DNA of 41,632 nt from Escherichia phage K1H: the sequence record NC_027994.1; one strand, given 5' to 3'. The notes beneath the pieces are model-generated. The model ran no database searches and was not told where the DNA came from. It saw nothing but the letters and a program-made list of their open reading frames with translations. The first letter of the stretch is position 1; every line of letters begins with the position of its first letter. Shown piece after piece: positions 9,247 through 36,600 of this stretch. The position numbers and the translations under genes are program-made.

Positions 9247-10413
9247 ATGGCTACAACTCCTTTTAAGGGCGCGAATACCGCGCAATTCTATGTGGCGGAA
9301 GTCACCCCGGGCGTAACACCGACTAACCCGGTCTGGTCACCGTTGCGTAACACTGGCGGTGTTCCTGCTATCACCCGCGACACGCTGACCTCCAACGAAC
9401 TGGACGGCAGCCGTGAAACTACATCCATCCGCACCGGTAACAAACAGGTTAGCGGTGAATACGCGATCGAGCTTAGCTCGAAAAGCCAGGATGACTGGCT
9501 GGCTGGTGCTTTAGGCTCTACGTGGCAATCCGGTGTTTCCCTGTCCAGTCTGTCGATTACCGTCGCACCCGCGGGCAAGACGTTCACACGCGCTACCGGC
9601 AGTTTTATCACTGACGGAGTTGGGGTAGGCGACCTGATTGCATTTACCGATTTAACAGGCGATAACGCAAAACCATTTATTGTTACTGCAGTAACGGCTA
9701 CGGTTGTTACCGGTGCGGGCATCCAACACACCCTGACCACCGAGACAAAAACTAGTAAGGCTAAAACCGGCGACACGCTGGAAACCGGTAACACGTGTAA
9801 GACGTTCTCTATCCTTACCTGGTACAAAGGCCAGTGCGGCGGTACTGACGCGTACACGTTAACCAAAGGCGTGGAAGTTTCTGGTTTTACCATCGAACAG
9901 GCTGTTAACGCGATGGTAACTGGCAGCTTCCCATTCATCGGTCGCAGTCAGGAGATTCTCACTACGCCGCCGACCGGTTCCAACTTCTCATCTGTTACTT
10001 TTGGTGATGAGCCGTTCTCTTCGGTTGACGTTTCCGTGTTCGATGGCTCTACGCCGTTGCGTTGTGATAGCCTTACTATCACCAACGACAACAGCGCGTC
10101 CGCACAGTTCGAACTCGGCAACACTAACGTAGCGTTTGTGGAGCGTAGCCGAGCAGCTAACACCTTCTCCATCTCCGGTAAGCTGTACGACATGGCGATG
10201 ATTCAGAAGTTTATCAACGAGCAGCAGGTGGAGATTAACTCTATTCTGGCTGGGGTAAACGGGGCTATGTCTTTCAGTTTGAAACGTGCAGAACTTACGG
10301 CGGTTACACCTGAGATTGGAGGACCTGAGTCAATCACTCAGTCTATTGAAGGCCAGGCTACTGGCAACCAGTACCAGTCGTCTATTGTTATTCAGCGTAT
10401 CACATACGCATAA
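9247..10413 (+). CDS. Major tail protein
   Basis: 389 aa from ATG 9247 (AGAGG SD); Thr/Ser/Gly-rich; followed by strong terminator. Confidence 0.65.
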   Translation: MATTPFKGANTAQFYVAEVTPGVTPTNPVWSPLRNTGGVPAITRDTLTSNELDGSRETTSIRTGNKQVSGEYAIELSSKSQDDWLAGALGSTWQSGVSLSSLSITVAPAGKTFTRATGSFITDGVGVGDLIAFTDLTGDNAKPFIVTAVTATVVTGAGIQHTLTTETKTSKAKTGDTLETGNTCKTFSILTWYKGQCGGTDAYTLTKGVEVSGFTIEQAVNAMVTGSFPFIGRSQEILTTPPTGSNFSSVTFGDEPFSSVDVSVFDGSTPLRCDSLTITNDNSASAQFELGNTNVAFVERSRAANTFSISGKLYDMAMIQKFINEQQVEINSILAGVNGAMSFSLKRAELTAVTPEIGGPESITQSIEGQATGNQYQSSIVIQRITYA

Positions 10414-32044: not shown

Positions 32045-34312
32045 CTATTCTAAATCCTCCTCTGTCACTGTTAACAGTTCATTCGGTTCGTATATCGTCT
32101 TCGGAATCTTGTTATCAGTTATCCGGGTGTTCAGCCTGTAACGGCCAGGGATTATCTGATTGTTTTCGTCAGTCCCCGGAACAAGATACCCAGCCTCAAC
32201 CATTTTCTTAATCTTCCCGCGTTCTATGGCTTCTTTGGAGTTAAACGCCTTTGCATTGGGGTCAGACTGTGCGAGCTTATTAGCGGCGGCGACTGTGATG
32301 CCTTCGTTGCCGTTGTAGGTTCCTTCCGCCAGTTCAAACGCCGCCAGTATCGTGGCTTCTGAACTGTTGACGGCGTTCTCTATGGTTTTACGTACGTTTT
32401 CTTTACCTTCTTTCGTCAACCCTTCTTCCCGCTCTTTCTCCTCGTCAGTCTTGAACGGCTCGAAACCCCACGGCATTAACACAAGTGCCTTATGCGGCTC
32501 CGGCAGGTCGAGGTTTACGATTGTGCCGTATTCCTCCGTGCTACCGAGGAACTCAACCGCACGGTACTCTTTCGGCGGCGGCGCTTCACGGAACTGTACA
32601 GACTCCAGCACCATACCAACCGTCTTCTGTTGAGGCCCGTGCTTGAATTTCGAGTGGTATACATTTATCTGGCGGTCGGTAGCTCGTTCGATTGTCAGTT
32701 CCACGTCGACGCCAGCATACAGCGCCCCACTGCCACGGGCTTTCTTTCCGCCCTTCGGCGTATGGTGGACAACGCCTACCGCAGCTTTAGTCGCGTCACG
32801 TACTTCTTTCAGGATGGCGATAACCTTACCCATGCCGATTGCCGTTGATGAACTGTTCTCGTCGAACTTATCAATCGTCAGGGCTAGCGTCTGGTTGAGG
32901 GTGTCGAACGCAACCATGCCGATGGGTTCGTCACCCGCAGTTTCACGCATCAACTTAATCAGGCTTTTCAGTTTTCCGACTTCGCCCATGTCGATGACAT
33001 GTACATAATCTTTACCTTCCTCGCTATACTTAGCTGCGAGCGCATCGATACGGGTGCGTGTAGCTGCGCCGCCCTCACCGTCGATATAAAAATGGTGGCA
33101 ACGCTGCGTATCTGCCCCCGCAAACCGGTATCCGGCGGCGCTCAGGTACATCATCCCCAGCGTATAGAACGATTTGTACGTTCCGGATTCCCCGACAATA
33201 TCCCAGATACAATCTGACGGCATGTACCCTTCAACGACGAAATCCGCCTTTACCGGTTCCGGTAACTCGTCATCCTCTGAGTCCTCGTCATCTTCCAGGT
33301 CGTCGAGGCTGCATGAAACAGATTCACGTGCACCCCATCCGATGGCCTCTGCGACTTCACTGAACGGCAGCCCCGTCGCATCGCACGCATACTTCCACAC
33401 CTCTTTCGGTGACATGCCTTCGGTCGCCGTAATGTCAGTGTCGTGAATCATGGTTACGTTCGGCGCCTCATATCCCTCTCGCGGGAAGCACAGCAGGAAG
33501 TCATCCGGGCGCGGCGTCGGGTCGCTGTAGTTTTCTGCGTGTTCTGGCGTAGCTGGCATCTTAAGGCCTCGTGGCGTCATGATACCGCCATACTCGAACG
33601 CCAGTGCCTCGAACGCGTCGGTAAACGCGGTGCGCAGTTCTTCCGGTATCTGGTAATCCGATGCGCTGCTAACGTCAACGGCAGGGATGCCTTCCAGTAA
33701 CTCGTCCGGGTCAATCAGGTCGTTGCGGCGTGACCAGATAACGGTAGAGCCAACCGGAGGCAGGTACATCGGTTGCGAAAGAGTGAACCCGCTGCGGTCA
33801 GCACCCATGCTTTTGAAGAAGTGTTCCAGCAATCCATGGCGAACACGGATGATGTCACCACCTTCGACCGGACGGGCCAGCGGCATGACGACGCGAAAGC
33901 GCGGGGACTCGTCGGTATGTGATGCCGTGGTATAGATACACATGCCCCGGCGGCTGCGTTTAACTAAGCGCACCGCTTCCTGATACTCTTCTGGTGTTGC
34001 GCTGTCGAAGTCCAGATACGCCAGCGACGATTTGCTTACAGACGCGTCACAGCGATAGAAAAAGCCTTTACGCGCTTGCTTAAAGTCGCCGGTTTCCGGG
34101 TCTTTTACAGTGCTGTGCGTCGAGTCGCACGCGGCGGTGATATAACCGGGCGCGGTCTTCGGGTTAATTCCGTCACGGACAGCATCGAGTGGCTGGATTA
34201 ACTCTTTCAGGTCGTCCAGTGTTGCCGTGTGTGTGGTTCTGACGTTTATATCCTTTTTCTCTGCCCGCGCGTTGCGACGTGACCACGAGTAGGATAAAAT
34301 TACATCGGACAT
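32045..34312 (-). CDS. DNA primase/helicase-like replication protein
   Basis: 755 aa; central RecA/P-loop-like segment GESGTYKS and hhhhD motif VAFDTL; assignment by size and context. Confidence 0.65.
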   Translation of the reverse strand: MSDVILSYSWSRRNARAEKKDINVRTTHTATLDDLKELIQPLDAVRDGINPKTAPGYITAACDSTHSTVKDPETGDFKQARKGFFYRCDASVSKSSLAYLDFDSATPEEYQEAVRLVKRSRRGMCIYTTASHTDESPRFRVVMPLARPVEGGDIIRVRHGLLEHFFKSMGADRSGFTLSQPMYLPPVGSTVIWSRRNDLIDPDELLEGIPAVDVSSASDYQIPEELRTAFTDAFEALAFEYGGIMTPRGLKMPATPEHAENYSDPTPRPDDFLLCFPREGYEAPNVTMIHDTDITATEGMSPKEVWKYACDATGLPFSEVAEAIGWGARESVSCSLDDLEDDEDSEDDELPEPVKADFVVEGYMPSDCIWDIVGESGTYKSFYTLGMMYLSAAGYRFAGADTQRCHHFYIDGEGGAATRTRIDALAAKYSEEGKDYVHVIDMGEVGKLKSLIKLMRETAGDEPIGMVAFDTLNQTLALTIDKFDENSSSTAIGMGKVIAILKEVRDATKAAVGVVHHTPKGGKKARGSGALYAGVDVELTIERATDRQINVYHSKFKHGPQQKTVGMVLESVQFREAPPPKEYRAVEFLGSTEEYGTIVNLDLPEPHKALVLMPWGFEPFKTDEEKEREEGLTKEGKENVRKTIENAVNSSEATILAAFELAEGTYNGNEGITVAAANKLAQSDPNAKAFNSKEAIERGKIKKMVEAGYLVPGTDENNQIIPGRYRLNTRITDNKIPKTIYEPNELLTVTEEDLE

Positions 34313-34370
34313 GTTGTATTTCCTTCAGCAAGTAATTTGGCCTCGGCGTTCACCGCGTCGGGGCTTTCTT

Positions 34371-34691
34371 TTATTCCAGGTCGTGGGAGATATTACCCTC
34401 GGGCACCAACACTTTTCCAATACTTCTCGCTTTCTCTGTAATAGGCGTCGCTCTTGTTGCCCGATAAAACTTTCCTTTATTAAGAATCTCACCATGTCGC
34501 TCGAGCACATCTAAAGCATGTTTGATCGGGTTTACACCGTAATTATCCAACCGGTATCTCCGAAGCCCGTCTACCGTAAAAGCGCCGTTCGCTTCGGTCA
34601 GTCTGCGTGCACACATTAATATGTGTTTCTGGAATTTAGTTAGCATCTTTAACGTTCTCCTTAATCCACGCCTCCACAGTAGCGCGGTCAA
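34371..34691 (-). CDS. Hypothetical protein
   Basis: 106-aa track ORF overlapping upstream gene by 56 nt; true start probably an internal ATG. Confidence 0.4.
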   Translation of the reverse strand: MTALLWRRGLRRTLKMLTKFQKHILMCARRLTEANGAFTVDGLRRYRLDNYGVNPIKHALDVLERHGEILNKGKFYRATRATPITEKARSIGKVLVPEGNISHDLE

Positions 34692-34815
34692 AGGTACCTG
34701 GCTGACGGTAGCCGTTAATAACCCGGCAACACTCAGGGAACTTACCCGACCGCAGCCAGCGATTAAGCGTCATAGGAGAAACTCCGATTAAGTCTGCTAC
34801 TTCTTTCTGTGTCAT
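34636..34815 (-). CDS. AlpA/excisionase-family HTH DNA-binding protein
   Basis: 59 aa from ATG 34815 (AGAGGG SD); MTQKEVADLIGVSPMTLNRWLRSGKFP... matches AlpA-like pattern. Confidence 0.55.
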   Translation of the reverse strand: MTQKEVADLIGVSPMTLNRWLRSGKFPECCRVINGYRQPGTFDRATVEAWIKENVKDAN

Positions 34816-34844
34816 TTTACACGCCCTCTTTATCAAGTGAAACA

Positions 34845-34873
34845 ACTATAACACCCACAATAGCCAAACACAA
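34845..34873 (-). promoter_or_regulatory. Putative minus-strand promoter (TTGTGT-N17-TATAGT)
   Basis: TATAGT -10 as in class-2 promoters; 23 nt upstream of AlpA-like ATG. Confidence 0.35.
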
Positions 34874-34877
34874 CCTA

Positions 34878-34905
34878 TTGACAAAATAAAATGTAGCTGT
34901 AAAAT
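34878..34905 (+). promoter_or_regulatory. Strong sigma70-like promoter (TTGACA-N16-TAAAAT)
   Basis: Consensus -35, near-consensus -10; faces a 390-nt region lacking any ATG. Confidence 0.55.
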
Positions 34906-35236
34906 CAATGTATCGAAGGACCTTAATTCAGAATTACTTAGAAACATCATTCTTAAGTCTCGGGTACTTAAAGCCCCGCCCTAAAGCGGGGCGCTAAACA
35001 GTACTCTTGGTAACGTTAGTATCTAAGTTTCCTCAAAGTAACAGCAAGTAGCAAGAAAGCCTCCGTCTATTTAAATTTTACCCTCCTTCATAAGCTACTG
35101 ATAATTAAAAGTTTCTATAGTTGCCGTAAGCGAGGTAGAGAGTACTTCACTCCGCTGGGGTGGGCTAACGCCCACCCACTGCGTTGCGTACTCCTTTAAG
35201 AAACGAAAGAATCACAACGGCAACGTAACTATTCTC

Positions 35237-35267
35237 TTGCACACCCCAACATAATAGGATACTATTC
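35237..35267 (+). promoter_or_regulatory. Sigma70-like promoter, class 1 (TTGCAC-N17-TACTAT) with dyad TAATAG-GATA-CTATTC
   Basis: -35 35237-35242, -10 35260-35265; about 30 nt upstream of first early-right gene. Confidence 0.55.
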
Positions 35268-35299
35268 ACTTATCGGAACGAGACAGAGGAGTGAGGGTT

Positions 35300-35497
35300 A
35301 TGTTTAAGAATGGTCAGTTGGTTAAATGCGCCGACGGTGAACACGGCATAATTGAATTAAAATCTGCTTTATTTCCAGGAAAGTACGTAGTTACCGTGCA
35401 AAATGTGAGAGGAGTAAATTCACAAATATACGTAGCGGAGGAGAACTTAAAACTCATCGGCAACAATTTTAAATTTAAAGGGGGGAGGGTGAAGTGA
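35300..35497 (+). CDS. Hypothetical early protein
   Basis: 65 aa from ATG 35300 (GAGGAG SD); track start GTG 35291. Confidence 0.5.
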   Translation: MFKNGQLVKCADGEHGIIELKSALFPGKYVVTVQNVRGVNSQIYVAEENLKLIGNNFKFKGGRVK

Positions 35498-35706
35498 TGG
35501 AAGAATTATTTGAAGAACTGAAACATCATGATTTCGAGGAAATATATTTCGTAGCTGAACGCTACGAGGTGCATTTATCGGACGTGATTACAATTATAAC
35601 GATGGATAGCCAGCAAATGCTAAATAGCTTACGAGCAATACGAGCAATACGAACGGCATCGAATCATGATGCTTGTGCCGACGACGCTGAGGGAGGTTGC
35701 CGTTAA
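35494..35706 (+). CDS. Hypothetical early protein
   Basis: 70 aa, ATGA overlap with upstream gene. Confidence 0.5.
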   Translation: MMEELFEELKHHDFEEIYFVAERYEVHLSDVITIITMDSQQMLNSLRAIRAIRTASNHDACADDAEGGCR

Positions 35707-35909
35707 TGCGAATCCGTATAACTGACCGCAGGCTTATCCGTATAACTGACCGCAGGCTTATCCGTATAACTGACCGCAGGCTTATAGATTTCGGTATCTC
35801 GGTAGGTGATGTTTTTCCGGCGTTCAGCATCAACCATTATGGTTTTATGATTGAGTACAAAGGGTCGTTATTGTTCGTGTATCGGGATGAATGTGAGGTT
35901 CTGGTATGA
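35706..35909 (+). CDS. Small protein with triplicated RLIRITDR peptide repeat
   Basis: 67 aa from ATG 35706 (TAATG overlap, GGAGG SD 10 nt upstream); N-terminus encoded by three perfect 24-bp tandem repeats. Confidence 0.45.
   Translation: MRIRITDRRLIRITDRRLIRITDRRLIDFGISVGDVFPAFSINHYGFMIEYKGSLLFVYRDECEVLV
35712..35785. repeat. Tandem direct repeat, 3 perfect copies of 24 bp (ATCCGTATAACTGACCGCAGGCTT)
   Basis: Read directly from sequence: copies at 35712-35735, 35736-35759, 35760-35783, followed by a 2-bp partial copy. Confidence 0.9.
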
Positions 35910-36061
35910 GAGAAGCATTTGAACGGTGGGCTGTGGTCGAGGGTCTGCCGGTTAACAAGGGTTCAAAGAAAGAGTACCTGAACGTTAAGACGCGTCTCGC
36001 GTGGCGGGCGTGGAAAGCTGGTGTGCAATCCTTGATTGAAAGAGGTGTGAGGTATGGGTGA
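35906..36061 (+). CDS. Hypothetical small protein (51 aa)
   Basis: ATGA overlap with upstream and downstream genes; below ORF-track size cutoff. Confidence 0.35.
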   Translation: MREAFERWAVVEGLPVNKGSKKEYLNVKTRLAWRAWKAGVQSLIERGVRYG

Positions 36062-36254
36062 GTGGATTAAGTGTAGTGAGATGCTGCCGGGTAATGGGTA
36101 TACGGATAAAGAGTTCCTGGTGTATGAAACGTTAAATAACGCAGTTCAGCACGATTATTACATAGTTCCTGATGACGGGAGAAAGCCTTTCTGGAATCAC
36201 TACGATAAGTACGTGACGCACTGGATGCCGTTACCCGAGCCGCCAGAAGTGTGA
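36054..36254 (+). CDS. Hypothetical protein
   Basis: 66 aa, translationally coupled. Confidence 0.5.
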   Translation: MGEWIKCSEMLPGNGYTDKEFLVYETLNNAVQHDYYIVPDDGRKPFWNHYDKYVTHWMPLPEPPEV

Positions 36255-36388
36255 TGTTCAATAGTTTGGGATTTTACTGAGTGACTTACGCTGCTACACA
36301 GCAGCGTACAACTTTAACTTAGTGTCGTCAAAAGGCGACACTTTCATCAAACGCAACAATCGAAGCGACTATTGCAGGAGATGCAACA

Positions 36389-36562
36389 ATGATTACTAAA
36401 GAACAGGCTGAACGACTAATCACGTTAATCGACACGATGGTTGATGCGAAAACCGATTTAGCAACGGCAACAGAGGAATCCGCTACCTGGTCGCTTGAAG
36501 AAAGAGAAGCAGAAGCGGAAAGGGAGTTACTGGCGTTCATCGACTCTATAACACACCAATAA
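36389..36562 (+). CDS. Hypothetical small protein (57 aa)
   Basis: AGGAG SD 8 nt upstream of ATG; acidic helical protein; antisense track ORF 36328..36540 judged spurious. Confidence 0.4.
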   Translation: MITKEQAERLITLIDTMVDAKTDLATATEESATWSLEEREAEAERELLAFIDSITHQ

Positions 36563-36569
36563 AATTTAC

Positions 36570-36600
36570 TTGCACACTAAGATAGAATAGGCTACTATTC
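36570..36600 (+). promoter_or_regulatory. Sigma70-like promoter, class 1 (TTGCAC-N17-TACTAT) with dyad GAATAG-GCTA-CTATTC
   Basis: -35 36570-36575, -10 36593-36598; perfect 6-bp half-sites. Confidence 0.55.

Follow-up and report, generated by a model that had tools for sequence, protein, structure and literature searches.

We consider the perfect 24-bp tandem array carried by the window (the whole stretch of phage DNA analysed, 41,632 nt) to be, with a probability of roughly 85%, a coding variable-number tandem repeat (VNTR) generated by slippage, and not a set of replication-origin iterons. Its identical units stand head to tail, each 24-bp unit corresponds to eight codons, and the open reading frame (ORF) that contains them is intact and coupled to its neighbours. 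Among near-identical genomes the copy number is polymorphic, and it has changed recurrently and independently. The copy-number variation is most likely neutral or mildly modulatory, probably near neutral, and nothing in the sequences compared points to a function of the array DNA as such.

A perfect 24-bp tandem array

The unit ATCCGTATAACTGACCGCAGGCTT was found three times head to tail with 0 mismatches at 35712-35783, followed by AT to position 35785 (Table 1). Tandem Repeats Finder (TRF) reported a period of 24, 3.1 copies, 100% matches and a score of 148, which made the array the strongest tandem repeat in the window; the runner-up scored 46. None of 100 dinucleotide-preserving shuffles gave a match to the 24-mer, and chance is no explanation for the array. 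The description of three perfect in-frame repeats within a 67-aa ORF, given by a sequence-only reading of this DNA, was thus confirmed. No further copy of the 24-mer was present in the window on either strand, at 3 or at 6 mismatches, and a search of 185,579 bacterial and archaeal genomes for the unit yielded no copy. A k-mer scan of the whole window for clustered repeats (k = 9-12, at least three copies within 400 bp) gave nothing convincing besides the array. One other k-mer cluster was seen in the structural-gene region, where the 10-mer ACCGGTAACA or its reverse complement occurred three times within about 350 bp (9433-9794).

The GC content of the unit was 50%, and the unit contained neither dyad symmetry nor a palindromic half-site. 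The fold of the array region was weaker than that of shuffled controls (RNA z +1.87, DNA z +0.86). Two resemblances at the repeat junction were rejected. An 11-nt inverted match between the junction (TTATCCGTATA) and 36099-36109 is of a kind expected about 0.6 times by chance in 2.3 kb, and it is present only with two or more copies of the unit. The likeness of the junction to a DnaA box (TTATCCGTA versus TTATCCACA, compared by eye) includes 2 mismatches and is missing from the G-junction and single-copy alleles.

Table 1. Features in and around the array (window coordinates).
Feature	Position	Strand	Remarks
Replicative helicase-primase, 755 aa	32045..34312	-	AAA_25; phrog_3228; presumed initiator, used to test the iteron reading
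Small HTH_17 protein	34636-34845	-	End of replication module
Divergent intergenic region, 445 bp	34846..35290	.	Between leftward replication module and rightward small-gene operon
Sigma-70-like, near-consensus promoter TTGACA-16-TAAAAT (predicted)	34878-34905	+	Inside divergent intergenic region
Upstream small gene	35497..35706	+	Translationally coupled to repeat gene (TAATG)
Shine-Dalgarno GGAGG	35692..35696	+	9 nt before ATG, within conserved junction cassette GGAGGTTGCCGTTAATG
Gene for 67-aa SH3-like small beta-barrel protein (predicted)	35706..35909	+	phrog_30395 subfamily of wider 63-aa family phrog_10916
Three perfect 24-bp tandem units + 2 nt of a fourth	35712..35785	+	Encode (IRITDRRL)x3
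Unit boundaries	35712-35735, 35736-35759, 35760-35783	+	
Downstream small gene	35906..36061	+	phrog_15836; overlaps repeat gene by ATGA

Genome context

The window region matched Kagunavirus (Guernseyvirinae) genomes, the best match being Escherichia phage K1G with 96.8% identity over 97% of a 24.6-kb query; by this similarity the window is a K1G-like Kagunavirus. Its gene order was the one usual for the genus, with structural genes on the plus strand, a leftward replication module, a divergent intergenic region and a rightward, tightly packed string of small genes that includes the repeat gene. The divergent intergenic region holds the turning point of the GC skew and the lowest GC content, together with two GC-rich hairpins (about 34973-34993 and 35158-35177). 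By eye, a second candidate promoter, TTGCAC-17-TACTAT, was seen there at about 35233-35268. An Rfam search over 34300-36600 gave no credible match. The pieces at window 35236-35269 and 34969-34996 recur elsewhere in the genome of phage fFiEco02, which suggests that they are repeated promoter or terminator elements.

The gene upstream of the repeat gene contained a second in-frame tandem duplication, of 9 bp (TACGAGCAA, 2.6 copies, 35630-35652), 60 nt upstream of the array. It gives LRAIRAIRT in the protein; every relative examined was one unit shorter (LRAIRT or LQAIKT), and so the duplication is private to the window. It fits a slippage-prone history. The antisense ORFs at 35594-35833 and 35703-35837 had no significant family match (one weak, chance-level PHROG match, E 0.044, for the 44-aa ORF), and both overlie two plus-strand genes that do have family matches. 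The former had been suspected to be an artefact in the sequence-only reading, and this result bears the suspicion out.

Unrelated upstream genes of different Kagunaviruses share a tail of about 17 aa, TASNHDA[CR]A[DE]D[AS]EGGCR, which is followed by GGAGGTTGCCGTTAATG (window 35655-35708, and relatives L010, L013, L014, L018 and L020). The shared tail and GGAGGTTGCCGTTAATG look like a conserved mosaic junction and RBS cassette placed before the SH3-like gene, and the junction is likely to be a recombination linker. Phage G AB-2017 was identical downstream and unrelated upstream, the switch lying at the first codons of the repeat gene. In some Kagunaviruses paralogues stand side by side, the 51-aa form being immediately preceded by the 63-aa phrog_10916 form (L013, 401-607; L020, 458-664); of the SH3-like paralogues, the window has the repeat-bearing form only. 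The neighbouring DUF551 gene is labelled 'valyl-tRNA synthetase' in GenBank, a label without Pfam support.

The repeat-bearing gene and its protein

The window protein begins MRIRITDRRLIRITDRRLIRITDRRLIDFG / MRIRITDRRLIRITDRRLIRITDRRLIDFGISVGD, and its three IRITDRRL units occupy residues 3-26, in frame as codons 3-26. Stop/start overlaps tie the gene to both neighbours (TAATG at 35704-35708 upstream, ATGA at 35906-35909 downstream), and the downstream overlap shows that the frame has to be maintained across the repeat. The protein matched the profile of phrog_30395 with an E-value of 3.9e-39, the 51 positions of that family being aligned to residues 19-67, and the profile of the wider family phrog_10916 with an E-value of 3.8e-06. 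A profile search yielded 116 relatives from the wider family, nearly all of 63 aa, with the consensus MRIRITDVDYVxPxxYxDxxLxYFGVSVGDEF...

The structural model of the window protein had an overall pLDDT of 80, with residues 1-10 below 50 and the core beginning from E18-21. The model of a 63-aa relative (pLDDT 90) consisted of strand beta1 at residues 2-5, a loop at residues 6-20, and then a helix and four strands. On these models, the fold of the repeat protein is predicted to be SH3-like, an SH3-type five-strand barrel. With the window protein as query, the top PDB match in Foldseek was the FeoA-like PA4359; SH3, Hfq and integrase C-terminal domains came next, and no match reached E<1e-3. No Pfam family, FeoA included, matched the protein at E<=1. 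Membership of the FeoA family (PF04023) was therefore rejected, the likeness being at the level of the fold only (2h3j, E 0.075; 3e19, E 0.32). Across GenBank records the homologues of the repeat gene are variously labelled 'FeoA family protein', 'glycosyl hydrolase' or hypothetical; the first two labels are unsupported, again because of the Pfam result.

The 24-bp unit encodes strand beta1 (IRIT) and the turn that follows it (DRRL). Compared with the 63-aa family, whose beta1-beta2 loop has 15 residues, the 51-aa subfamily is without about 12 residues of that loop. Any alignment of a repeat is arbitrary, which leaves two readings of the extra 8 or 16 residues of multi-copy alleles. They may be an N-terminal tail, as AlphaFold places them, a reading that depends on the gap placement by MAFFT, or they may re-lengthen the beta1-beta2 (RT-type) loop, with the first MRIRIT serving as beta1. 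To judge from the models, the insert would sit where the fold is permissive and would therefore be tolerated.

With every unit the gene gains an ATA and an AGG codon, which are the rarest for their amino acids in the long ORFs (14% of Ile and 5.8% of Arg codons, respectively), and no tRNA genes were found in the phage. Three copies bring seven ATA/AGG codons plus CGA into the first 27 codons. Lower expression is a possible side effect of the added codons, going by codon usage.

Copy number among related phages

We drew the gene of relatives from 40 GenBank phage records, IMG/VR contigs and metagenome contigs, and read the 5' ends. The single-copy form (51 aa) was the commonest; it was present in G AB-2017, L AB-2017, NTEC3, JSSK01, phiEc3, LF7074P3, EC3-1, BUCT825, TPH05A and several contigs. 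Two copies (59 aa) were carried by K1ind3, fTaEco01, Esher4, UTI89UKE1, fKuEco01, one IMG/VR contig and five metagenome contigs, and three copies (67 aa) by the window, K1G and UTI-CM001 only. No allele of more than three copies was seen in the metagenome contigs or in a collection of 5.8 billion proteins; the close subfamily in that collection was mostly of 51 aa, apart from a single 59-aa cluster, and no greater length could be attributed to additional repeats.

All multi-copy alleles had one C-terminal allele (FPAFSINHY) in common. Over the 470 nt downstream of the array they differed from one another by 0-5 nt, or by 0-2 nt when Esher4 was left aside, and G AB-2017, the nearest single-copy phage, differed from the window by 2 nt over the same distance. 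Since phages with one, two and three copies are nearly identical over these 470 nt, copy number changes far faster than point substitutions accumulate.

The first base of the unit was polymorphic, giving ATC (Ile) or GTC (Val). The A/A/A array of the window and K1G matches the A/A two-copy alleles (fKuEco01 and L029), and the A/G/G array of UTI-CM001 matches the A/G two-copy alleles. The two three-copy arrays thus arose from different two-copy alleles, and the expansion from two to three copies took place at least twice. On the sequences, the simplest history would be one duplication, one substitution and two independent expansions from two to three copies. Single-copy units differed from one another synonymously (ATC/ATT, CGT/CGA, CGA/AGA) or by occasional single amino-acid changes, and this synonymous variation indicates that the protein, and not a DNA motif, is what is conserved.

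Proposed origin of the array and alternative explanations

As the most probable course of events, one sub-lineage of K1-specific Kagunavirus would have acquired a duplication of a 24-bp segment at the 5' end of the SH3-like gene. This first duplication probably came about at the 2-nt microhomology AT...AT on either side of the single-copy unit (GA|ATCCGT...GGCTT|ATAGAT). Once two identical 24-bp copies were present, replication slippage or unequal recombination would have changed their number repeatedly and given rise to the 1-, 2- and 3-copy alleles, a mechanism suggested by the pattern of alleles. The unit length is a multiple of three, and so a change in copy number disturbs neither the frame nor the protein core nor the translational coupling with the gene downstream. 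Residues added by further units (8 or 16) would be tolerated as a floppy N-terminal tail or a longer beta1-beta2 loop; in the models, the 15-residue loop of the wider 63-aa family, lost by the 51-aa subfamily, appears to sit at the position of the insert.

The sequence-only reading had put iteron-like origin repeats in its headline and had offered a protein-binding array and a recently expanded repeat protein beside them; with copy numbers of 1, 2 and 3 between near-identical flanks, the last of these options stood and the headline was not supported. Initiator binding sites embedded in the gene, for the helicase-primase or an HTH protein, as with the lambda ori iterons in gene O, now seem very improbable. 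Three direct repeats of iteron-like size do lie in an early region, and the helicase-primase gene is about 1.4 kb away, but most relatives with the same replication module have one copy. Copy number in related phages had been proposed as a check, the origin to be given up if the number varied with no phenotype and no protein binding, and the number does vary, from 1 to 3 in viable phages. The helicase-primase of fFiEco02 is 96.3% identical to that of the window as protein and 90.4% as DNA, yet the 24-mer is absent from the whole fFiEco02 genome at up to 6 mismatches; this phage also has the right half of the intergenic region, at 97% identity, and carries only the 63-aa, repeat-less paralogue. 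The surrounding 1.1 kb has matches in 197 phage records, and the gene, present in only 40 of them, is accordingly dispensable. The synonymous variation within the unit and its 50% GC content without symmetry or secondary structure also speak against initiator binding. No AT-rich block adjoins the array, as 200-nt windows over and after it have 45-48% GC; the lowest values, 36-39%, lie 150-900 nt upstream. The cumulative GC skew, another suggested check, does turn within about 0.5 kb of the array, but its minimum falls at about 35100-35300, 450-600 bp away, at the switch in gene strand and not at the repeat. Because this turn coincides with the flip in gene orientation, it is inseparable from transcription-linked skew and uninformative on the repeat. 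Of the properties of an iteron origin that we tested, several direct repeats of about 17-24 bp were present (3 x 24 bp, in the window, K1G and UTI-CM001 only), and conservation with the initiator, constraint at the DNA level and an adjacent AT-rich unwinding region were all absent. Our literature searches turned up neither a Kagunavirus origin nor the 24-bp repeat. On the sequence comparison, the iteron reading appears already largely refuted; if there is any origin nearby, 34846-35290 would be the better candidate region.

A protein-binding array (operator-like or a roadblock) for a regulator such as the HTH_17 protein, gained only in the K1G sub-lineage, is equally hard to credit. A multimeric DNA-binding protein could find binding sites in perfect repeats with a 24-bp period, and an HTH gene is nearby, but no further copy of the motif exists in the genome, at promoters for instance, the unit has no palindromic half-site, and close relatives with one copy are viable. 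A non-exhaustive comparison showed no systematic difference in the HTH gene between 1-, 2- and 3-copy phages; between the window and fFiEco02 this gene has 69% nucleotide identity. Inflation of the repeat by sequencing or assembly is next to impossible: tandem repeats are prone to mis-assembly, but a typical read is longer than the 72-bp array, many independent isolates and metagenomes contain two-copy alleles, UTI-CM001 has a distinct A/G/G three-copy allele, and the three-copy allele of the window stands also in the independent GenBank record of K1G, which excludes an assembly artefact. Selection could also lie behind the recurrent expansion, which took place in a clade that otherwise shows almost no substitutions. 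Repeat number would then be tuned through the length of the loop or tail and partner binding, or through ATA/AGG codons that throttle translation of the gene and the coupled downstream genes. We regard such tuning as unlikely. In its favour are a minimum of three changes in copy number against 0-2 substitutions per 470 nt in the clade, the two expansions to three copies, the insert at the site of the 15-residue loop and the rare codons in a phage without tRNA genes, but the high mutation rate of perfect tandem repeats gives the same pattern without selection. In addition, one-copy alleles are the commonest, three copies are the maximum seen, and the unrelated 9-bp in-frame duplication upstream points to slippage-prone replication rather than targeted selection. 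Were the tuning true, a host-takeover protein of K1-specific Kagunaviruses would have its binding or its dosage adjusted time and again, which would explain the recurrent expansions in a near-invariant clade.

Significance and comparison with known systems

A coding VNTR is a well-known kind of feature, and the array is a new but unremarkable instance of it. Its value is mainly corrective: a striking perfect repeat in a phage early region does not amount to an origin annotation without comparative support, and for this array the comparison of relatives settled the origin question in a few steps. The locus also offers a ready strain-typing marker (1, 2 or 3 copies plus the A/G junction allele) for therapy with, or engineering of, K1-specific Kagunaviruses such as CM001, and the array shows where in a small SH3-like protein an insertion is permitted.

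With the SH3-like small beta-barrels (SH3, FeoA, Hfq/Sm and the integrase C-terminal domain; PHROG families 30395 and 10916) the comparison of the repeat protein is at the level described above, the Pfam search at E<=1 giving no family among them. Like the lambda ori, with its four iterons in gene O, the array consists of direct repeats of about 20 bp that are translated within an early gene. In lambda, the iterons (18-19 bp) are imperfect copies, with internal dyad symmetry, inside the gene of the initiator itself; an AT-rich region adjoins them, and they are conserved together with the O protein that matches them. In contrast, the array is perfect, has no symmetry and no AT-rich flank, lies in an unrelated SH3-like gene, and is built of a unit that is single-copy or absent in phages with the same helicase-primase.

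Compared with typical coding VNTRs, the array is very short (1-3 copies) and its protein very small (51-67 aa). At this array there is no evidence of on/off phase variation, because the frame is always kept. In other respects the array resembles coding VNTRs and the slipped-strand, in-frame duplications of bacterial and phage genes: its units are perfect, head to tail and of a length that is a multiple of three, its copy number is polymorphic among near-identical genomes, it occupies a structurally permissive part of the protein, and the units of one genome resemble each other more than they resemble those of other genomes (A/A/A versus A/G/G).
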